Part shown: in pieces, positions 1,882 to 28,731 of the stretch
How positions within the stretch are numbered: position 1 is the stretch's first letter
Layout: the number at the start of each line of letters is the position of its first letter
Source of the DNA: a virus
Lineage: Duplodnaviria; Caudoviricetes
Reading direction: 5' to 3' (one strand)
Length of the DNA stretch: 28,782 nucleotides
Virus record (IMG/VR): IMGVR_UViG_3300009095_000057
Span: 1-28,782 of that record
Notes under the pieces: model-generated
What the model was told of the DNA's origin: nothing
Database searches by the model: none
What the model saw: only the letters and a program-made list of their open reading frames with translations
Translations under genes and position numbers: made by a program

Positions 1882-2754
1882 TTATTTGTATGAGATTTGT
1901 GATGGAGCAGATGAGAACATACTAACTAAATTAATGTCATCTCTATTATCTAATATACTCCTAATTTTAATATCTTTTGCTCTAATTTTATCCTTTTTAA
2001 ATGACCTAATTGAATAATCCATATTATCTTGATTAACTTCTTTGTCGTAACTTAATGATTTACAAGAAGTTATGAATAGTGGACTTTCTACATTTTTAGC
2101 TATATTCCAAAAAGTATTATATTGATAAAAATTATCACTTTTAGTATAAGTTATAGTTTTACTTTCGGTATTGTATTTAGGAAAAGAAAGTTGAGCTTTC
2201 ATATTATTTTTAGGCTTATTTTCAAGTTCTAATATACCTGTGGACTGCTGATCATTATATATAACAACTTTATTAAAATAACCATCATTAATTTGTATTT
2301 TCCTATTATTATCAGAATTACCTCTGTCTTCAGGTAAGTACTTAAACACTTTTGTATAATCCTTTACGTTTTGTAGAATCTCATCATTAAATTCATAAGC
2401 GATGGGTTGCTCTAATATATAAGGATGAATACAACCGTAGAATGAATTATATTTAGTATTATCTTTTAAATGTTTCCAGATAGAGGATGTGTTCTTACTT
2501 TCTGGTTTAGATGCTGCTAACTCAGGTTTGGTTATTGTTCCTATAGGGATATTAATAAACTTATTACAGCAGTTTTCCCCACCAAACACTACTTTTATCA
2601 CCTTTACATCATCTTCTATTTGTAATGAAATTCCTGAAAGTAACTCTTCTCTTAAAACTGAAGGTAATAGAATATTACCTCTATCATCTTGCAATGAAAA
2701 AGTATCTATTCTATTACCTATTTTTTTGAGTTTTATAACTATTACTTTACTCAT
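1882..2754 (-). CDS. Probable C-terminal part of tail stabilization (muzzle) protein, with an added ~70-aa N-terminal domain
   Basis: From about residue 90 (SSIWKH..YNSFYG..PYILE..FNKVVIYNDQQSTGILEL) it resembles the C-terminus I recall for crAss-like muzzle proteins. The N-terminal domain aligns by eye with that of 2756..3295. Confidence 0.65.
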   Translation of the reverse strand: MSKVIVIKLKKIGNRIDTFSLQDDRGNILLPSVLREELLSGISLQIEDDVKVIKVVFGGENCCNKFINIPIGTITKPELAASKPESKNTSSIWKHLKDNTKYNSFYGCIHPYILEQPIAYEFNDEILQNVKDYTKVFKYLPEDRGNSDNNRKIQINDGYFNKVVIYNDQQSTGILELENKPKNNMKAQLSFPKYNTESKTITYTKSDNFYQYNTFWNIAKNVESPLFITSCKSLSYDKEVNQDNMDYSIRSFKKDKIRAKDIKIRSILDNRDDINLVSMFSSAPSQISYK

Positions 2755-2755
2755 A

Positions 2756-3295
2756 TTATGGGCAATCTAAAGTAGTATCGGAGCCAATTACACCTGTACC
2801 TGAATCTATGTTATAAATATCTCCAACTCCTTCTTCCATTATATAATTTTGCCCAGTTAACAAAATTGTCAATGATGGATCAGTATATATTGTACTACCT
2901 GGGGCAATAGTTTCACCCCCTCCTGTATACACAGGATCTAATCCTCCTGAACAAACGTTTTCAGTAGTTGTTCCATATCTTACTATAAATTGTAAAACTC
3001 CCTCGCTAGTTGTAGTTGTAGTGGTTACTGGTGGTTCTGTAGTTGAACTAGTTGTAGTTGTAGTGGTTTCCTCAATTGATATATCTACGTAGTTATTACA
3101 TAGAGGTCCAGTTGATTGAACTCTTATAACTGTAGTACCTTCAGGTACAAGATAGGAGGTGTATCCTGATTCTAAATCTAATTTAGCTATACTACTTTCA
3201 AAAGGTACAGTAAATCCATCTATATTAGATAATAGATTGAAAGGTCCTGTATCTGAACCAGCTGTAGTTAATGTTATTAAAACTGTAAGTGCCAT
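2756..3295 (-). CDS. Two-domain putative virion accessory protein with poly-Thr linker
   Basis: 179-aa ORF: beta-rich domain ending in CNNYVDISI, then a TTTTTTSSTTEPPVTTTTTT linker, then a second beta-rich domain with two Cys. Confidence 0.7.
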   Translation of the reverse strand: MALTVLITLTTAGSDTGPFNLLSNIDGFTVPFESSIAKLDLESGYTSYLVPEGTTVIRVQSTGPLCNNYVDISIEETTTTTTSSTTEPPVTTTTTTSEGVLQFIVRYGTTTENVCSGGLDPVYTGGGETIAPGSTIYTDPSLTILLTGQNYIMEEGVGDIYNIDSGTGVIGSDTTLDCP

Positions 3296-3309
3296 AATAT
3301 TTTTATTTA

Positions 3310-3585
3310 TTATAATGTGGTAGTTGTAGTTGTTGTCTCCTCTACTCCAGTAGTAGTTGTAGTAGTAGTAGGTGCTTCTGTTGTAGTAGTTGTAGTAGTT
3401 GAAGGGGTTATGTCGTATGCTGTTCCTTCTAAGTCACACTCAGTTATTAAAAACGCAACTCCTTCTAATTCACAACTCAAAACTTGTAACTCTCCCTCAA
3501 GTTCACAATCAAAAGAAGGTTCTTGAGAAGTTGTAGTAGTTGTAGTTTCTACTATTTCAGCAGCAAATATATCTAAATCACATCC
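3310..3585 (-). repeat. Four Cys-peptide repeats C[DE]L[DE] with poly-Thr tracts at the muzzle C-terminus
   Basis: CDLDIFA, CELEGEL, CELEGVA, CDLEGTA with Cys codons starting at 3582, 3507, 3474, 3438; four Thr runs of 6-7 residues. Confidence 0.9.
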
Positions 3586-6500
3586 TGTATTTAAACCTGA
3601 GTAGAAAAAGTTATTCTCAGCTATATAGAAATTAGGTATGTAGGAATGAAAACTGATCCAAGTTTTAGTATTTAAATTAAAGGATAGTGTCCAAGATTTA
3701 TTACAGAAATATAAAGGATCACCTAATTGCACTATTTGCTTTAACCCTTTATCTGTTTCAATATAGAAATCTCCATCGTATTTAATATCAGAAGATAGAG
3801 GAATATAATCAAGTTTTGTAATAATTACCCTATCGTATTTGGTATCATATACCCCATGTAATCCTATTCCCTTAAAATGGTTATCCGTATTAATCTCAGG
3901 AAAATAATCAGATATTTCAAAAGGTAAATGGTCAGTAAAAAACTGATTCATACCTAATCCTAATGCTGATAAATCTTCTACCGAATTTCCAGATATGAGG
4001 AAAATTTGACCCCTTTTAGCATCTGCTGTAATTTGACCTTGTGGTATTCTAAGAAGCATTTTATGCTGAGATCCTACAAACCCCGTGTCTGTTTCTGCAA
4101 AATCAATAGGAGGAGAGCTTCTAAATAAACTATCATTACCTAAGTAAGCAGCTTGAGGATTACTTGTATCTATTGTAAGTAGTGTGTTGTATAACAAAGA
4201 TTTATTATGAAATCTTGCCAATACTCCTCTATTTTGAATACTGTCAATAGATGTTAAATTTCCATAATTTTGAGGAAAATCAAAATAAGAAACAGGTCTA
4301 TATATTAACCAGTTATTTTTAGAAGGTCCTCCAGCAGGATCAGAATATATAGCCCTAAATGGAAATTTAGTAAAACACAAATCATCTTCCCAATCAGCAG
4401 GTAAATGAGAGAAGAAATTCTCTCTATTTTGTTTAGAGTAAGTTACGTTATAATAATAAGTATTATCCTGTACAATAGGAACAAAGCTTTCTTGTAACCA
4501 ATCATCAGGTATACCTGAAGAGACATGAGGATAGAAATCCCCTTCTCTATTATTAAAAGCTTGCCTTAAATCTAAATTTATTGAACTTTCACAGTAAAAT
4601 GAAGGTATTCCGTAAGCAAACATATACATTTTACCATCATAGTAAGTTCTACCTGGATTAACTACTTTTGGTGAAGCAGTGTCATCAGGCACAGGTAATT
4701 GATTATTAGGACAATCAAAGTTATGGGCTTTAACGGATATAATGTTTTTTAAAACTTCAGAACCCAACTTAGAATCCGTATAATCATATAAAATAGATCT
4801 TGCTGAATGCCAATATTCAGGATATGCAATATTACCTATTTCATCATAATATATATCACTATCGTCAGGAGCGCCTACTCTATTATCAATAAAAAATGGT
4901 AACTTAGTCTTAAATGTGTGTTTTCCTATAAAAGTATCTCCACCAAATACATATGCTGTATTTTGATTATCTGAGAACATTATTTGAGTCCCAGTATCTA
5001 CAGTTTCATAAGAATAGATTTGACCCCATTGGTTTAAAAATGTATTTTTAAGAGAAGCATAATATACTACAGAAGATATATCAAACTGTTCTTCTGGTTG
5101 AGAACAATTTATCTGAGAAGCAATATACCTAGAATTATCACTAACTAAGCTTTCTGTGCCTAATAATAAGGAGTTAGTTTGTGAAGGATAAGGTAAAGAG
5201 GAGTTAGTTTTAATATAAACCGAGCTTTCTCTTTGGTAATTATTTAGATTTAAATCATCATTTACAGACTGTACTCCCGGATACAGATATTGAGAGGTGT
5301 CAATTTTTCTTTGCTTTATTCCTTGAGAATTATCTACAGGGGAGGAATAATTATAATTCAATATAGAATTATAACTGTATCCGTAATTTCTCCTAGTTAT
5401 TCCATTTAAATATATTTGTAAATAAGCTTGGTATGCTGTAAATAATGCTGTGCTGCTAAAAGGAGAAGTAATATCTGCAATTGCTACACTTGATTTTAAC
5501 GCATCTTCTTGTGCTTCTTTACTAATTAGTCTGTAAAGAGCGTTTTTCTTTACTTGTACAAAATGGGCTTTTCCTGCCCCAAATATAACATTTTCTATTT
5601 TAAGAACATCTCCTAGAAAGGGTTGACCGTAAGAAGTTTCAGGAGAGTTAAATACTTGTCTAGATTTGCTATCTTCATCAGTAAATGCTTTTAATTTATC
5701 TGGATAGCAGGCACTGTTTCTTGAGTCAGTAGGTATTTGAGTTATTGTATGAGGAGCATTACCAAAAGGAATAAGGGTTGAGGGTTTAGTACTAACTTGT
5801 ACATTTACAATAACAGGAGAACCTGCAAAAACTAATACAGATTGATTGTCCCCATTTGTATCAGTATATTTAAAATATACTCTATTAGGAATAGAAACAA
5901 ATGATCCTGTTAAACTACTAAAACCTTGAACAGAGAGTTCGTATGTCTCATATCCTATTTCCGTAACAGTTCCTGCACTTGAAGGGTCAAGAACAGGAGT
6001 AGATAATGAACAAACTTGTATAGTTTGACCACTTGTTATTTCTTCACCTATTAACGTATTAGTAAAACAATCTGTATATTCGTATCTACAGTCTGAAGTA
6101 GTTACAATTTCATATGTCCTACATTCTGAATTATAAGCGTTGCTTTTTTCTAGAAGAAAAGGGTCTTCTTTAAGATCATTATATGGATAGTTTGGAAAAT
6201 AATATTGAGTTCCTTCTCTTTCATATTTTCCTACGTTTCTAAGAATACCTTTAGCTACAATAGATTTATTGGTACTTCTATCACCTCTAACTATTTTAAA
6301 TCCTACAATACTATCTTTTTGAGATTGAGTTAAATCTGATTGATTTATTAAATTTTGTATTTGACTAATATCTATTTTAACTCCAATAGGATAGATTGCC
6401 CTATCCTCCATGTTTAGATTAGTATATTTACCATCAGCATCTGTATCTATAGTAGGACTTTCAAATATAGGACATAAATTAACATCTGGAAATTTATGGT

Positions 6501-7959
6501 GTCTAATAGGCTGTCCTGCTAAATCTCCCCAAACTTCAGTATCACAAGGATATAATTCAGTTGATTCCCAGTAACCAAATTCACCATATTGATGAGGACC
6601 TTTATACTCAGGATCAGATGTTGATTCTGTAGCTAATATAGTAGCTGTATTATTGTTTCTCCAAAAAGGATTAGGTTGTCCATCAGGACCTATATAATCA
6701 GGATCAGAAGAATTAACTTCTCCATAACTTAAATCAGAGGGAGATATCACCCTACCCGGAATGTGAAAGCTGTCTAACTGTTTACCATTGTTTAAAAGTG
6801 GAACAAACTCAAATGGATAAACCTCATCTCTCAAATAACTTCTAAAATTAGTAGCATTTAGTTCATCTGCATAATTTTCACCAGCAGGTAGTCTCCAAGT
6901 TTGCCACTGTAATGTTATTTGATTAGCTATTTTCTGTAAATTCATTCGATCTACAGAAGTCAACCCTTTCCAAACAAGTACGTCACTAACTGCTGTTACA
7001 TCATCTGCTATCTCGTAAGATGGGAATTTTTCAAATATATCATCTATGGTGAGTCTAATTTGTGTCTGATTTTGCCCACTATATATAATTTCTTTATTTG
7101 AAGAATCTACATTATATGTTCCTACTAACTCTACTGAAGGTATATTATTTACTGTTTTTATAACAGCAAGATTGAAGTATTCAAATACCCCAGATATGTC
7201 AATGTTGTCAATTTCTAATATAACTGACTTACCCACAGGATAGTTAAAATCAGCAGTGGTTATTTGATTGTTTGCTACAGGGAGAGGGTTAGTTACTGAA
7301 TAGTAAGAAGTATAACCAAAACCATTTACGTCACAATATTGTATTGCAAACTGTACAGTTCCTGCTGTTAGATTACCTCCACTAATAACATCTTTTATTG
7401 TGATATTTGGAATATCAAATTTAGGCTGTACACTTAATTGGTTACAGTCTACATCATTCGTAAATTTATTATCACATACATCAGTATTTTCTTGCCTTTT
7501 GTAAGGAATTTCATCAAGATTTAAAAATCTCCTTGGGTTAAATCCATCAGCCCAATATATCTCAATACCACAATTAGTTGTTCTGTGAGCACATTTATGT
7601 ATAGGATGGTCTATGTGAAAGTTTAAACAATCAGCATTAACTAATGTCTTATATACACACTCATTATTTTCACTATATCCTATTTCTGACCTACCTTCAT
7701 CAGGATTAACCAAAAAGAATATGTGTTTTTTAGCTTCAGGAATAGTATACTTACCTATTACAGAGTATCCTTCTGGAAACTCAAAGCAAGATATGTTACC
7801 TTGTTCGTTTTGATAGTTAATTGAATTACCATCAAAATTTTGAACATTGGCGTTTAGAGCATAAGAAACCTTACCTTTCTGTATTTGACCTACAGAAGAA
7901 TCGGTATCCATACCTAATCTAGAAAACTGAATATGGTTATTGATATTTGATTCAGCCAT
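3310..7959 (-). CDS. Tail stabilization / muzzle protein (P22 gp10-like, crAss Tstab), N-terminal major part
   Basis: 1549 aa. GMDTD..YALNA N-terminus, IYWADGFNPRR, RHHKFP, FGGDTFI, WTLSF..WISFHSY motifs; follows the tail tube gene. Confidence 0.85.
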   Translation of the reverse strand: MAESNINNHIQFSRLGMDTDSSVGQIQKGKVSYALNANVQNFDGNSINYQNEQGNISCFEFPEGYSVIGKYTIPEAKKHIFFLVNPDEGRSEIGYSENNECVYKTLVNADCLNFHIDHPIHKCAHRTTNCGIEIYWADGFNPRRFLNLDEIPYKRQENTDVCDNKFTNDVDCNQLSVQPKFDIPNITIKDVISGGNLTAGTVQFAIQYCDVNGFGYTSYYSVTNPLPVANNQITTADFNYPVGKSVILEIDNIDISGVFEYFNLAVIKTVNNIPSVELVGTYNVDSSNKEIIYSGQNQTQIRLTIDDIFEKFPSYEIADDVTAVSDVLVWKGLTSVDRMNLQKIANQITLQWQTWRLPAGENYADELNATNFRSYLRDEVYPFEFVPLLNNGKQLDSFHIPGRVISPSDLSYGEVNSSDPDYIGPDGQPNPFWRNNNTATILATESTSDPEYKGPHQYGEFGYWESTELYPCDTEVWGDLAGQPIRHHKFPDVNLCPIFESPTIDTDADGKYTNLNMEDRAIYPIGVKIDISQIQNLINQSDLTQSQKDSIVGFKIVRGDRSTNKSIVAKGILRNVGKYEREGTQYYFPNYPYNDLKEDPFLLEKSNAYNSECRTYEIVTTSDCRYEYTDCFTNTLIGEEITSGQTIQVCSLSTPVLDPSSAGTVTEIGYETYELSVQGFSSLTGSFVSIPNRVYFKYTDTNGDNQSVLVFAGSPVIVNVQVSTKPSTLIPFGNAPHTITQIPTDSRNSACYPDKLKAFTDEDSKSRQVFNSPETSYGQPFLGDVLKIENVIFGAGKAHFVQVKKNALYRLISKEAQEDALKSSVAIADITSPFSSTALFTAYQAYLQIYLNGITRRNYGYSYNSILNYNYSSPVDNSQGIKQRKIDTSQYLYPGVQSVNDDLNLNNYQRESSVYIKTNSSLPYPSQTNSLLLGTESLVSDNSRYIASQINCSQPEEQFDISSVVYYASLKNTFLNQWGQIYSYETVDTGTQIMFSDNQNTAYVFGGDTFIGKHTFKTKLPFFIDNRVGAPDDSDIYYDEIGNIAYPEYWHSARSILYDYTDSKLGSEVLKNIISVKAHNFDCPNNQLPVPDDTASPKVVNPGRTYYDGKMYMFAYGIPSFYCESSINLDLRQAFNNREGDFYPHVSSGIPDDWLQESFVPIVQDNTYYYNVTYSKQNRENFFSHLPADWEDDLCFTKFPFRAIYSDPAGGPSKNNWLIYRPVSYFDFPQNYGNLTSIDSIQNRGVLARFHNKSLLYNTLLTIDTSNPQAAYLGNDSLFRSSPPIDFAETDTGFVGSQHKMLLRIPQGQITADAKRGQIFLISGNSVEDLSALGLGMNQFFTDHLPFEISDYFPEINTDNHFKGIGLHGVYDTKYDRVIITKLDYIPLSSDIKYDGDFYIETDKGLKQIVQLGDPLYFCNKSWTLSFNLNTKTWISFHSYIPNFYIAENNFFYSGLNTGCDLDIFAAEIVETTTTTTSQEPSFDCELEGELQVLSCELEGVAFLITECDLEGTAYDITPSTTTTTTTEAPTTTTTTTGVEETTTTTTTL

Positions 7960-9395: not shown

Positions 9396-10121
9396 TTAAT
9401 CTGTATTTCTGCTACCGGGAGATTGTCCATCAATAGAATTCGATGTCTTATCTACTGGAAGATTAAAATAAGTTTGTAGTAATTTTTGACTTACAAGATC
9501 AAGAACTTGTTTCTCCAGATACCCAGGAATATTAGCAGGGAGATCTAGTGGGTTTTTGCATATTTCCTCATTTGTAGCTTTAGTACCACAATCACAATCA
9601 GGAAACATTATTTTATTAGGAATGTCTTCTTCAAAACTGGCAGATATTCTTACAGCTTTTACTGAAGGGTTAGTAACATAAAGATAGTCATTTACTATAA
9701 AGTAATATTCTTCTTTTTTAATAACAGGTAGTTTTAGTAAATTTATATACCTATTAACTGTTATTTCTTTTAGTTTCTTACCTGTACCTGATAGAGCATT
9801 TATTGAATATACTCCCTGTATAAGGTACTGATAATTACCTTCTCCTATCTTTGGAAGTTTATATTTACTTCTAGCTATATTACATTCATCCACAAAATCA
9901 CAACATTCAGAAATAGGAACTTCCATCATTTCTAAACATGGAATAGTTGTAAATAAAGTATCAGTAGCCCATAATTTTCTAAGATTAGTTTCTCTTTTAA
10001 TCAATAGAGAACCTGTTCTCTTTATTTCTGAGAAAATAAGTCTGTCATTAATATAGGAATCAGAGGAAAGTATTTTATGCAATCCTCTAACTCCACTCAC
10101 TAGTTCTCTACGAGTTGCCAT
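9396..10121 (-). CDS. Tail ring protein (crAss001 gp40-like)
   Basis: 241 aa; QTIPCLE-like (TTIPCLE) motif, YLYV..SASFED-like segment, synteny. Confidence 0.6.
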   Translation of the reverse strand: MATRRELVSGVRGLHKILSSDSYINDRLIFSEIKRTGSLLIKRETNLRKLWATDTLFTTIPCLEMMEVPISECCDFVDECNIARSKYKLPKIGEGNYQYLIQGVYSINALSGTGKKLKEITVNRYINLLKLPVIKKEEYYFIVNDYLYVTNPSVKAVRISASFEEDIPNKIMFPDCDCGTKATNEEICKNPLDLPANIPGYLEKQVLDLVSQKLLQTYFNLPVDKTSNSIDGQSPGSRNTD

Positions 10122-11353
10122 TATAATCTAAATTCAAATTCTGCGATTTTCCCTTTTTCAGGATGATATACAAATGCTAATGCTGCTCTAATTTGGTTTA
10201 TATATCCATTGTCTTGATGCCACCTATCTGTTCCCGACAATGATGGGACTTGTTGTACTCTTACTCCTGTACCGTTTATTTCTTTAGCCATGTAGTGATG
10301 TTTATCACCAGTGTGTACTTCTCTATATTTAGCTAAACCGAAAGCCATTGCACTATCTGGAGAGGTAGCAAACATAATGGGTAAGTTTTCTAGTTTACAG
10401 TTGTTACCATGATGGTAACCTATAAAAGTATCTCCAACTACTGTAAATTTTGTTACTGAATGATGTCTTTGGAATTTAATATTTTTGTATTCTCTAAATA
10501 GTACCTCTAATGCATGTGCAACAAAAAATCCTTTTGTTCTATCATGATTCCCCTGTACTAAAATAACTTCTAACTCCTCACATTGAGTTTTTAAGAAACT
10601 GATAGACTCTGCTAATATTTCAAATCCTTTCTCATACTCTTCATCAAACCAAGCAGTTACATCTTGTGGTGTACCATTTGTTGTACTATTTTGGTAGTTA
10701 TCTGTATGGAAGAAATCGTTCGATAATGGAAATACTAATTTTCTAATTTTATAGTTAGCTGTAATTTTATTGATCAAATCCTCAATAGCAAAGAAGTAGT
10801 CAAGTTGTTTTGACGCTAAATTATCTCCTTGAAAGGTCTTTTTAGCTAAATGAAAATCGGAAATGTTAAGTTCTACGTCTACTTTCTCTAGCTTCTTAGC
10901 AGTAGGATAAACTTTAAATATATGATTTTTGATTCCAGGTTTCCAATTACTCAGAAATTTTGCAAAATCTTCTGGAGTGTAATCTTGTGGCTTTTTAAGT
11001 GATGCTAATACAGAAGAAGTAAATTTACCATTTGGTCTTAGTTTTGACCAGTAGTTTGATATTTTGTATTTATTAAGATCAATTTTATGTAGTTTTGCTA
11101 GTTCTTCTATATCTTTTGGCTCAAAAGAAACTTCTACTTTACTTTCGATTGTTCCTTTATCTACATTTACGTGGGTAGTTAATTCATTTAAGTCTTCGAA
11201 TTGATCTTCCGTTTCTTGGTTTTTAAGTTCTTTTAATAGTTCTTCTAAATAATCTTCTGTTATGTTTAATTTTTCACAATAATATTTTTTGGATTTCTTG
11301 TGACTTAATAGCTGCTGAAGTCTGTTAAGTAACTTTTCATTGTTTTCTACCAT
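10121..11353 (-). CDS. Calcineurin-like metallophosphoesterase with N-terminal helical domain
   Basis: Motifs SDFH, NDFFH, GNHD, HHG, HTGDKHH in the expected order. Confidence 0.85.
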   Translation of the reverse strand: MVENNEKLLNRLQQLLSHKKSKKYYCEKLNITEDYLEELLKELKNQETEDQFEDLNELTTHVNVDKGTIESKVEVSFEPKDIEELAKLHKIDLNKYKISNYWSKLRPNGKFTSSVLASLKKPQDYTPEDFAKFLSNWKPGIKNHIFKVYPTAKKLEKVDVELNISDFHLAKKTFQGDNLASKQLDYFFAIEDLINKITANYKIRKLVFPLSNDFFHTDNYQNSTTNGTPQDVTAWFDEEYEKGFEILAESISFLKTQCEELEVILVQGNHDRTKGFFVAHALEVLFREYKNIKFQRHHSVTKFTVVGDTFIGYHHGNNCKLENLPIMFATSPDSAMAFGLAKYREVHTGDKHHYMAKEINGTGVRVQQVPSLSGTDRWHQDNGYINQIRAALAFVYHPEKGKIAEFEFRL

Positions 11354-11530: not shown

Positions 11531-11839
11531 TTAAGGACATTCTCCTATCTTTTCGCAAAGAATGGTTTTTAATGCAGGATTTGTGTCAATCGCTACAATT
11601 AAGGCATTAAATATCTCTTCTGGGGATAGTTTTTGATCAATTTTTTCAATTGCTACAGTTATTAAATCCTCAGTCTGGATTCCTGTATAGGGAAGATTTG
11701 AACCTGCATAATATAAACCATCAGAAGATAATAAAGTACTATTAGGAGTAGTACAACCTTGAGGATAAGTAGTATATACCACTAATCCACTTTGATAAGC
11801 AGTTGTCCAGCAGGGCATTCCGGGAACACATTTTGACAT
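11531..11839 (-). CDS. Small putative fibre-associated structural protein
   Basis: 102 aa, Cys at both ends, YAGSNLPYTGIQTEDLITVAIEKID module similar to the N-terminus of the neighbouring fibre protein. Confidence 0.6.
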   Translation of the reverse strand: MSKCVPGMPCWTTAYQSGLVVYTTYPQGCTTPNSTLLSSDGLYYAGSNLPYTGIQTEDLITVAIEKIDQKLSPEEIFNALIVAIDTNPALKTILCEKIGECP

Positions 11840-12974: not shown

Positions 12975-13244
12975 TTAGTTTTTATTGATTAAAATTTTTA
13001 CTCTACCTATTATCTTGTCCATACTGTAATTATCTAAATATAAAGAGTTACAATATTTATACTGTAAAATCCTCTTATAATGTAATAAATCTGAAATAAT
13101 ATCCGTGTTTATCTGCTTATTTAAAATAAACACAATATTACCATATTGCTTCTTTGCAAGATCAGTTAATTTACAATCTATCTGGGAAATTAACCCAGGT
13201 ATAGAATTACATTCCTCACATTCTCTTAATCTTGGAAATAACAT
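12975..13244 (-). CDS. Small tail protein, probable tail hub B
   Basis: 89-aa helical ORF; assignment is from synteny only. Confidence 0.5.
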   Translation of the reverse strand: MLFPRLRECEECNSIPGLISQIDCKLTDLAKKQYGNIVFILNKQINTDIISDLLHYKRILQYKYCNSLYLDNYSMDKIIGRVKILINKN

Positions 13245-13973: not shown

Positions 13974-15110
13974 TTAAGCAGTAGTTGTAGTAGTTGTGGT
14001 TACACAAGCATTATCTGCATCTACAGAACCAAGAGCTGCTTCAAGAACTGCCTCAATACCAGCCGTTAAACCACTTGGTACAGCGATAATTACAGTACTA
14101 TCAGTTTTAACAACATCACTCCAGTTACCAGATGATTTATCGTAATCGTTAAATTTGATTACAAACTGATCATAAATTTGACCATCACTTACGTAAGATT
14201 CAAACACATTATTGTATCCAGCCAAGTGATGAAGATGTTTACCGAAACCAGTTTGATAAGAATGGAAATCTTTTTCAAGTTGACGGATTTCATCAGGTGT
14301 ACCTTTAGGATAAGTAGATTCCTGAATTACCTCAACATCAGCTACGTTTATACAAGCATCTGGTACAATAAAGTCTGCTGTAGTAGCAGGACCTTCAGTA
14401 ACAAATACGTTAAAACGCATTTTATCAAATTCAAATGGGAATGCAGCAGGGTCACAAGGTTGACCGTAAACATTTAGAGCTTTAGCATGAATTCTTAGAA
14501 TTGAGCTTGATCCACTACCAACACGTTCGAATACGAACAGATCTGTTAGTTTAATGTTATCAGGATTGATACCTGAAGCGGACTGTTCAAGTTTTTCGAT
14601 AATGCTATCAACAAGTGCTTCAGCATCTACTTCTGTACATGGATCAGCACCACACTCACAACAAGGAGCGTTTACCGTTACACTTCTGGTTAAACCATTA
14701 AAGTATAGTGTCTCCAGATATGAAGAGAATGCGCGTATGGTTACGGTCAGGACTTCTCCACACTTTACAGAGAAATTATCAACATCTGTGATTTGATTTA
14801 CTGCGGTCGCACAACCTGCAATTTTGTAAAATTCAAGTACGTTTGAGTTAGCAGCATTTGCACCTGCGTTTTGAAGAGCACCTGCAATCTTATCAGAGCG
14901 TTTGCTACCCTGTAAAAGATTATCTTCTCTTCCTTGAGCAATGTAAAAATATTTAACTCCTGCATCATCAATAGATGTAGAAGAAGCAGTTGTGTAGTCA
15001 GGTTTGAAAAACCCTACACGACCAGCCGTAAGATCCTGAGTAGAACCAGAGCTAGGAAGAGTATTTCCTACTGGCACTACAAACAGAGTAGTTAACGAGA
15101 AATCAGCCAT
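13974..15110 (-). CDS. Auxiliary capsid protein (crAss gene 73 / gp36-like)
   Basis: 378 aa, codon usage resembling the capsid gene, followed by a strong terminator; synteny; ends CVTTTTTTTA. Confidence 0.65.
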   Translation of the reverse strand: MADFSLTTLFVVPVGNTLPSSGSTQDLTAGRVGFFKPDYTTASSTSIDDAGVKYFYIAQGREDNLLQGSKRSDKIAGALQNAGANAANSNVLEFYKIAGCATAVNQITDVDNFSVKCGEVLTVTIRAFSSYLETLYFNGLTRSVTVNAPCCECGADPCTEVDAEALVDSIIEKLEQSASGINPDNIKLTDLFVFERVGSGSSSILRIHAKALNVYGQPCDPAAFPFEFDKMRFNVFVTEGPATTADFIVPDACINVADVEVIQESTYPKGTPDEIRQLEKDFHSYQTGFGKHLHHLAGYNNVFESYVSDGQIYDQFVIKFNDYDKSSGNWSDVVKTDSTVIIAVPSGLTAGIEAVLEAALGSVDADNACVTTTTTTTA

Positions 15111-17095: not shown

Positions 17096-17590
17096 TTAAA
17101 TTAAATTTTTAATTTTTCCTGTTTTTCCTTTTTCTATTTCAAGAACTCTTTTGACGTGTATAATGTCAGTATAAGGACTATGTAATTCTCTATGACAGTT
17201 AGCACATAGTAACATACATTTCAAAGCTTCTTCTAAAATATCATCATCTGATTTAGATTTCAAATTTTGAATCTTTACTTCAAAATTCTTTTCGTAAGGA
17301 TTTTTATGATGAAAATCGAATGCTGATATATTTTTATTATATCCACATTTTTCACACTTTCCTCCAAAAAGTTCTATTAATTCTAACTTCTTTTGAAGAC
17401 CTCTTAATGTATACTTATTTAAACCATACTCTTCTTTAAACTTTTTCTGAGTTTCAGAAGCGTATTGATATTTGACCTTATCGTGACATTTTTGACTACA
17501 GAATCTTTTCCTTCTCTGTATCTTTTTACCTGTCTTAGTCTTTAGTTCTTTTTTACAATATTCACAATATCTAATTTGTGAATCACCCAT
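17096..17590 (-). CDS. Free-standing HNH homing endonuclease with N-terminal zinc finger
   Basis: CEYC..FCSQKC, then GGKCEKCGY..FDFHH..LLCANCHRELH. Confidence 0.85.
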   Translation of the reverse strand: MGDSQIRYCEYCKKELKTKTGKKIQRRKRFCSQKCHDKVKYQYASETQKKFKEEYGLNKYTLRGLQKKLELIELFGGKCEKCGYNKNISAFDFHHKNPYEKNFEVKIQNLKSKSDDDILEEALKCMLLCANCHRELHSPYTDIIHVKRVLEIEKGKTGKIKNLI

Positions 17591-28202: not shown

Positions 28203-28277
28203 TGGGACAACTTAGAATCGAACTAAGTTCTTCTGTTCTTCAGACAGACGCAGAATCACCAGACTTGCTCTTGCCCC
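28203..28277 (-). tRNA. tRNA-Phe(GAA)
   Basis: GGGGCAA/TTGTCCC acceptor, TCTGT-CTGAAGA-ACAGA, CTTAG-TTCGATT-CTAAG. Confidence 0.87.
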
Positions 28278-28731
28278 TTTTATTTTTACTACCAAATGTA
28301 TCTGTTTGTCTATGACAATTTGGACATAAAAATCTTAAATTTTTTATTGTATTATCTGTTCGGTTTCCATTTATATGATCTATATCTAAAGTTATTTCTT
28401 TTCCCTGCCAATGAGTCAGATCACATTTATTACATTGATAAGGAATCCCTTTTTCTATCATTGCTCTTTTTAATAAGGAATGATTAGCTCTAAAGATATA
28501 ATCGTCCTTTAATATATCATCTGCCCCTTTTCTGCGAATAAATGACGGGTTTCTACTACCTTTATGACTCTTTCCTGTAAAATGACTAGTATCTACATTC
28601 CAAAGAATACATCTTTTTTTAAGAATTTGATAACTATTGCCACTATCAGGACATCCTATTTTTCTACATAATTCAGAAAAATTAATACTGCTTATTGCTG
28701 CTTTCTTTACTTGCTCTATTGTATATTTCAT
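28240..28731 (-). CDS. HNH homing endonuclease within tRNA cluster
   Basis: CNKC..LDIDHINGNRTDN..NLRFLCPNCH. Confidence 0.9.
   Translation of the reverse strand: MKYTIEQVKKAAISSINFSELCRKIGCPDSGNSYQILKKRCILWNVDTSHFTGKSHKGSRNPSFIRRKGADDILKDDYIFRANHSLLKRAMIEKGIPYQCNKCDLTHWQGKEITLDIDHINGNRTDNTIKNLRFLCPNCHRQTDTFGSKNKRGKSKSGDSASV

Follow-up and report, generated by a model that had tools for sequence, protein, structure and literature searches.

A split muzzle gene in a crAss-like phage fragment and a candidate cysteine-tag docking system

The 28,782-nucleotide stretch analyzed here (IMG/VR virus record IMGVR_UViG_3300009095_000057, positions 1 to 28,782; hereafter the window) is a crAss-like phage fragment whose virion genes lie on the minus strand, as do the three ORFs of the muzzle region and their parts. 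Comparison with related sequences from about 170 loci indicates that its muzzle gene is almost certainly divided into two open reading frames (ORFs), of 1549 and 290 aa, between which stands a 179-aa accessory gene. From sequence patterns and a modeled fold we consider it likely that Cys-led peptides at the end of the first product supply the missing strand A of a domain shared by the other two and, with somewhat less assurance, that a disulfide locks each peptide to its domain. An original prediction, made by a model from the letters and their reading frames, had described the three ORFs and four Cys peptides, all of which are present on the minus strand where it placed them.

The divided muzzle gene

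The expected context of a muzzle gene is present in the window, in that matches to the Pfam families CrAss_Ring_1, CrAss_Ring_2, and Crass_capsid exceed the cut-off; the virion block also holds terminase- and portal-sized ORFs, a collar-fiber gene, and the muzzle itself. The muzzle N-part (P0001, 1549 aa; 3310..7959) matches PF25731 (crAss_MUZ) with 136.5 bits (cut-off 27) and PHROG 37948 with an E value of 5e-108. Judged by the muzzle, the nearest GenBank records are Lbo-JY46 (35%), Cellulophaga phi17:2 and phi4:1, csAssE-Sib, and Flavobacterium phages. Lbo-JY46 (L295; PP438436.1), the closest cultured record, has a single-chain muzzle, a crass-type capsid match, and a cyanobacterium listed as its host; the hosts of other relatives are Bacteroidota.

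The last conserved muzzle stretch of P0001 is WISFHSY...FFYSG (aa 1434 to 1455; 3595..3660), after which single-chain muzzles reach the next W-x-H in 4 to 19 residues. In the window, that continuation is W93-K290 (1885..2478) of the muzzle C-part (P0003, 290 aa; 1882..2754). Residues 90 to 290 of P0003 can be aligned with the C-terminal ~200 aa of 88 single-chain muzzles of 913 to 1912 aa, which were found in a search among longer proteins and match ~70% of P0003; identity to their C-termini over W93-K290 is 43 to 60%. The proteins matched by the C-part carry PF25731, and their distance from W-x-S-F-H to W-x-H is 26 to 41 residues in the 77 of 88 in which it is measurable. When both ORFs are aligned to the same single-chain homologue, P0003 takes up where P0001 stops: in Lbo-JY46, the P0001 alignment reaches residue 1468 and aa 90 to 290 of P0003 cover residues 1461 to 1654, and in the annotated muzzle of csAssE-Sib the two alignments abut at 2059/2061. 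The claim of a split muzzle is thus borne out: a gene of its own encodes the last ~200 muzzle residues, which follow one paralogue of the shared domain. An AlphaFold2 (AF2) model of P0261, a homologous C-part, gave the crAss001 muzzle (7QOK) as its top Foldseek row at an E value of 2.9e-3, which is below our significance bar (probability 1.00, TM score 0.30, root mean square deviation 9.4). The crAss001 gp44 protein was not alignable by sequence, because phmmer and hmmsearch against PDB sequences returned no match for P0001, P0003, or the shared-domain profile.

The split form is widespread, with 412 matching stretches in the viral collection, and the split site is identical in 80 of 80 fetched loci (the first set) and in all 94 scorable loci of a second set of further loci (97 fetched, some from the same contigs). 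Assembly error was ruled out as the cause of the split because the split is conserved in many loci. A tree of 150 C-terminal regions unites all of the split forms in one supported group within the single-chain diversity, and 13 single-chain rows are nested among them at three places, which suggests one split followed by a few re-fusions. This tree was a quick, midpoint-rooted one, and the order of the events can only be inferred from it, since its single-chain sample was picked by likeness to P0003. The 13 re-fused muzzles lack both the Cys tags and the shared domain described below; 11 other near-invariant Cys residues are kept in 13 of 13 each, and C162 and C472 survive in only 3 of 13 and seem to have been lost together. 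One single-chain muzzle nested among the split forms (P0004) has a Cys on either side of the junction and resembles a deletion product of the clade with Cys at positions 1459 and 91. In L121:14360-20183, L143:14188-20216, L207, and L213, the muzzle N-part is itself divided among additional ORFs, and a second site in it has inserts rich in Thr and Cys; these breaks may reflect a frameshift, an assembly error, or a second split.

Cysteine peptides and the shared domain

The end of P0001 had been read as four Cys peptides of one kind set among poly-Thr linkers. Four peptides are indeed there, yet they are not equivalent, one being of an invariant junction type and three of a spare type, and the Thr runs flank the spare array instead of separating its members. 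The junction peptide (C1460-E1471, CDLDIFAAEIVE, beginning CDLDIFA; 3547..3582), the putative donor strand for the muzzle-C domain, is a distinct type without Gly at +4, and its Cys is kept in all 76 dereplicated split loci (drawn from 167 at 90%). The spare tags, recognized from the sequence and by motif enrichment, are CELEGELQVL (C1485-L1494; 3478..3507), CELEGVAFLI (C1496-I1505; 3445..3474), and CDLEGTAYDI (C1508-I1517; 3409..3438); these three CxLxG motifs stand back-to-back, 11 and 12 residues apart, with Thr runs only outside the array. They are followed by the Thr-rich C-terminal tail (3313..3405), which in relatives is 17 to 800 aa long and frequently includes payload domains. The 93-aa tail of P0001 as a whole, with the peptides included, has three CxLxG-type motifs, and shuffling it 10,000 times never produced more than one. 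Similarly, 61 distinct homologous tails contain 146 motifs against a shuffled mean of 1.7 and a maximum of 6 (200 shuffles), and the background in other genes is 11 in 357,455 residues. Among N-parts, the junction peptide is followed by zero to eight spare tags with the consensus C-x-L-x-G-T-A (128 distinct), and the spacing of tandem tags, which were defined by a 13-residue limit, is 10 to 13 residues in 99 of 99 intervals.

The two downstream ORFs begin with a similar domain, as had been noticed: HHalign relates the two copies at 98.5% (E value of 2e-15 over 71 columns), and a pairwise BLAST of the two N-terminal domains gave no significant match (E value of 1.1). The accessory type is aa 1 to 75 of P0002 (3071..3295; C66 codon at 3098-3100), and the muzzle type is aa 1 to 72 of P0003 (2539..2754; C62/C63 at 2566-2571). 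The Cys assigned to the terminal strand proved to stand at the start of the last predicted strand. We found the domain in 1,791 protein clusters at 50% identity; among the 150 of these listed, on which the accessory-domain statistics are based, it is N-terminal in every case, C66 is invariant, and the domain has a single Cys in 145. On the muzzle side, C63 is present in 75 of 76 dereplicated rows, and the strand-G Cys is invariant across both paralogues (74 rows). No Pfam family and no cultured-phage record matched the domain, and an ESM Atlas search gave unnamed viral clusters only. At L164:1983-3140, just after a tag-bearing small gene, there is by eye a very divergent shared domain that the profiles missed.

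AF2 predicts the accessory domain to be an FnIII-like sandwich of six strands with a short helix, at a predicted local distance difference test (pLDDT) score of 81.8. A wide structural search returned FnIII domains at Z scores of 5 to 5.9, a middling score, and several single-domain FnIII entries align only from residue 18 to 21 to their end (Z scores of 4.6 to 5.6), so that the match begins with strand B and strand A has no counterpart. The top Foldseek rows were mostly Ig or FnIII sandwiches, none significant. The fiber subunits of GP4, VP1, Bas63, and A1002 are absent from the listed fold-search rows, which does not show that the folds differ. In the FnIII fold, strand A starts next to where strand G begins and strand B ends. 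Complex predictions of the accessory domain with the three spare tags scored 0.23, 0.33, and 0.04 against a mark of 0.32, with controls not folded, and speak neither for nor against binding.

Cysteines also covary across the two muzzle genes. Cys at N-part position 1459 and Cys at C-part position 91 are never found apart (28/0/0/48 in 76 rows), this being the best of 422 C-part residue states and also the top pair by mutual information (z of 11.9); within the C-part, C62 goes with C108 in the same manner (27/0/0/49), and Cys 11 is present in the same 8 rows as Cys 87. In the window itself, position 1459 is Gly and position 91 is Ser. Taken together, these pairs put the junction peptide at the same spot as the end of strand B and the start of strand G, next to the old junction; once the covarying cysteines are accounted for, C1460 (76/76) and C63 (75/76) remain as natural partners. 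The mean charge of the junction peptide is -2.6, versus +3.6 for the first strand of muzzle-C, whereas mild acidity is seen in spare tags and accessory strands alike. The opposite charges of the junction pair, set against the acidity of the spare pair, could keep the two apart, and junction and spare peptides probably each have their own paralogue of the shared domain.

Tag-like motifs were also seen elsewhere. In L163:14497-15423, L260:9092-9991, and a subset of P0261-P0276, one or two spare-type tags stand directly before the muzzle-C domain, and the N-part junction peptide is retained. Behind the shared domain, seven of the 150 accessories, among them L139:6869-7549, have a tag-like motif as well and could thereby form chains; several of these motifs may be payload sequence that matches by chance. 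In L086:3780-4733, L139:2698-3471, L164:1590-1961, L169:5365-5778, and L170:5394-6035, tags terminate Thr-linked extensions of small virion genes that by eye resemble the window ORFs at 11531-11839 and 12975-13244, and these loci have relocated or duplicated accessory genes. A 378-aa gene in the window (13974-15110) ends, like its homologues, in a Cys and a Thr run, Thr tails being common to the virion genes of the clade. The "tag" of L250 is part of a payload domain and was not counted as genuine.

Accessory genes, proposed docking, and competing explanations

Accessory genes have a common layout of shared domain, Thr/Ser linker, and payload. In the accessory protein of the window (P0002, 179 aa; 2756..3295), a Thr linker leads to a variable payload domain without a Pfam family (aa 98 to 179; 2759..3004) that contains Cys 115 and Cys 178. 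The payloads are diverse, the 132 long enough for comparison falling into 52 BLAST clusters, and Pfam recognizes only 4 of 150 accessory rows, among which accessory P0114 has an ice-binding-like payload (PF11999, E value of 4e-36). Payload cysteines are even in number in 101 of 135. The accessory gene is in many loci found 4 to 5 kb away, beside the collar-fiber genes. Payloads are common to accessories and muzzle tails (at best 96.6% identical over 119 aa), which puts payloads at the muzzle without by itself showing the docking route.

If the domain binds the tags, the two should co-occur across phage genomes, as the original prediction proposed, and spare tags and the accessory gene do largely go together. 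Both are present in 62 of the first 80 loci and neither in 14, with tags only in 3 and an accessory only in 1; the corresponding numbers in the second set are 78, 6, 8, and 2. Searching whole records revealed an accessory gene elsewhere in 3 of 3 tag-only records of the first set and in 5 of 8 of the second, and in none of 13 tagless records (4 of them 99 to 100% complete) or 5 further tagless ones. On the 76-row tree, a context-aware tag rule that allows Gly at +6 and requires that the tag be near a Thr/Ser run, a further tag, or the end of the chain made 73 of 76 rows concordant, and 7.5 of 8 contrasts ran in the same direction with 0 opposed (p = 0.008). The re-fused muzzle P0005, used as a query, returned 10 loci, none scorable as single-chain.

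Peptide-domain docking, the central proposal of the original prediction, thus gains indirect support from the co-occurrence of tags and accessories, the FnIII fold without strand A, and the cross-gene Cys covariation; binding and the disulfide are what we infer from these. In the favored mechanism, the two muzzle pieces would co-fold at the old junction, where the C1460 peptide would enter the muzzle-C domain as its strand A and lie next to C63, where strand G starts. Each spare CxLxG tag would likewise complete one accessory-type domain through C66, so that accessories would be strung like beads along the tail, and a hexameric muzzle with three tags could hold up to 18 accessory copies per virion. 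The Thr-linked payloads, swapped between phages, would be turned outward, and their probable ligands are on the cell surface or in the environment. Decoration of the tail tip, as first suggested, is not favored: the domain order in the available sections of PMC10172136 makes the propeller shoulder of the muzzle, the region after IG2, more probable than the distal tip, and accessories are probably attached there.

A number of observations weigh against this mechanism. Some concern the co-occurrence. With strict labels, 5.4 of the 8 independent contrasts on the 76-row tree agreed and 0.1 went the other way, which is not significant (p = 0.06), and the rule behind the p value of 0.008 was fixed only after the exceptions were known; a first, shorter tree had only 3 contrasts (p = 0.25). 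Fragments make up most of the tagless records, and of the 13 searched whole, 4 failed to yield even the muzzle-C paralogue, so divergent accessories can go unseen. Three rows disagree even under the context rule: in L164 and L234 tags occur but no accessory was detected, and in L216 an accessory occurs but no tag. Nor does the number of tags go with that of accessory genes. Payloads shared with accessories are fused to 20 of 66 tagged tails as well as to 6 of 14 tagless ones. Others concern the structure and the covariation. The fold matches are middling, with no Z score of 8 or more and no Foldseek E value of 0.001 or less. The 1459/91 pair has few events on the tree (4 changes, 3 concordant contrasts, p = 0.25), the 8 rows with C-part Cys 11 and Cys 87 belong to a single clade, and the charge pair 1463/11 lacks significance when tested on the tree. 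Finally, in the AF2 model of P0261, a natural tag-domain fusion, the tag (residues 1 to 10) is unfolded (pLDDT of 42), although that tag is possibly just another spare, because the fusion clade retains the junction peptide.

The unfolded tag also fits a different arrangement, in which the shared domain is a self-sufficient anchor on a folded tail surface (muzzle body, ring, or hub) and the CxLxG repeats serve another use, such as cross-linking the six muzzle tails. That the domain is predicted to fold alone (pLDDT of 82) and that the accessory gene is often 4 to 5 kb distant, near the collar-fiber genes, agree with such an anchor, but it leaves unexplained the joint loss of tags and accessories, the single unpaired invariant Cys on both sides, and the tags on small virion genes where accessories have been relocated, and we regard it as unlikely. 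Less likely still is that the tags do form a rope on which the bead is a domain dimer or higher oligomer, as in the fibers of GP4, Bas63, and A1002, or that the cysteines pair tag to tag. Published rope systems do use dimers, according to the available parts of PMC13730344 and PMC12609058, but a tag spacing of 10 to 13 residues fits one strand per domain, and the muzzle-C domain is present once per muzzle subunit, which has one junction peptide.

The invariance of C1460 could instead mark an atypical split intein beginning there, with a single chain restored by protein trans-splicing; RNA splicing, readthrough, or a frameshift would have the same outcome. An Asn precedes Thr/Ser five residues ahead of the conserved Trp in 52 of 76 rows, and joining at that Asn would yield a junction of normal length. 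However, the Asn is missing in the other 24 and His-Asn occurs in only 1 of 76, the domain is predicted to be FnIII-like, Pfam and NCBIfam scans of P0001-P0003 found no intein family, and the accessory paralogue has no extein. Moreover, the N-part stop is TAA TAA, the downstream genes have their own ATGs, and in most relatives the accessory frame extends upstream by no more than a few codons. We consider restoration of a single chain highly improbable and rejected the split intein, readthrough, and frameshift.

Strand completion by Cys-led peptides is the reading that we favor, and a broader scheme may be built on it, which we put forward only tentatively. A large uncultured crAss-like clade may use a disulfide-locked tag/catcher standard with two orthogonal pairs, one rebuilding the muzzle and the other plugging in payloads; the number of 11-residue tags would set the valency, tags could be moved to other virion proteins, and tagged accessories would give branched chains. 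If this is true, it is a genetically programmable display system with over a thousand payload variants. The docking mechanism itself, should it prove right, would explain how a widespread phage clade varies the tail surface with the conserved gate protein untouched, payload genes and 11-residue docking sites being gained, lost, and moved separately. Protein assembly and phage display would also gain a small tag/catcher pair of natural origin that is probably redox-reversible.

Neighboring genes and known systems

Other genes of the window include a 410-aa phosphoesterase-like gene (10121-11353; weak TIGR04123 match) that is conserved in the virion block between the ring and collar-fiber genes. 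Two ORFs are HNH-like by eye (17096-17590 and 28240-28731); the former directly follows the major capsid gene, and the latter has weak ZorE/IscB matches that are far under the cut-off.

Completion of a domain by a strand from another chain has familiar parallels. In chaperone-usher pili, an Ig-like domain without one strand is completed by a peptide of another chain, the donated strand being G and a chaperone and an usher being needed, and the engineered SpyTag/SpyCatcher pair forms an isopeptide bond. For the system described here, by contrast, the prediction is that strand A is missing and that a disulfide serves as the lock.

The homologous protein is the PhicrAss001 muzzle gp44 (PF25731; 7QOK), which shares the ring and crass capsid gene context and, in the available sections of PMC10172136, belongs to a tail with documented inter-protein disulfides. 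It is one chain, whereas the muzzle of the window is split ~200 residues from the C-terminus and has tags and an added FnIII-like domain. By analogy, the closest functional model is the split nozzle of Pseudomonas podophage A1002, which has a nozzle-rope (gp39), a nozzle-base (gp42), and 11 fiber dimers. As the available sections of PMC13730344 describe it, the nozzle propeller is spread over two genes and rebuilt by complementation, and the rope binds fiber subunits by beta-sheet augmentation. A1002 is of an unrelated lineage, however, and its beads are dimers of 147/171-aa proteins that form the fiber itself; those sections describe no repeated Cys-led tag, disulfide lock, doubly used shared domain, or variable payload. 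The Bas63 collar-rope/whisker and GP4 rope/Fiber-1 systems are alike in that a rope lying in grooves completes incomplete beta-sandwiches as beads on a string, and they differ in being at the collar rather than the nozzle, in having dimeric whiskers with an N-terminal helix, and in their fixed composition (PMC12609058, available sections).

The rope-and-bead principle is thus already known from A1002, Bas63, and GP4. Neither a split crAss-like muzzle nor the shared domain is described in any paper that our literature search returned; subscription journals and supplements lay outside it. The proposed mechanism, if true, extends rope-and-bead strand completion to crAss-like phages, and what is new relative to the known systems is the crAss-like muzzle, the repeated Cys-led tag, the use of one domain family for both rejoining and docking, and the large set of exchangeable payloads.

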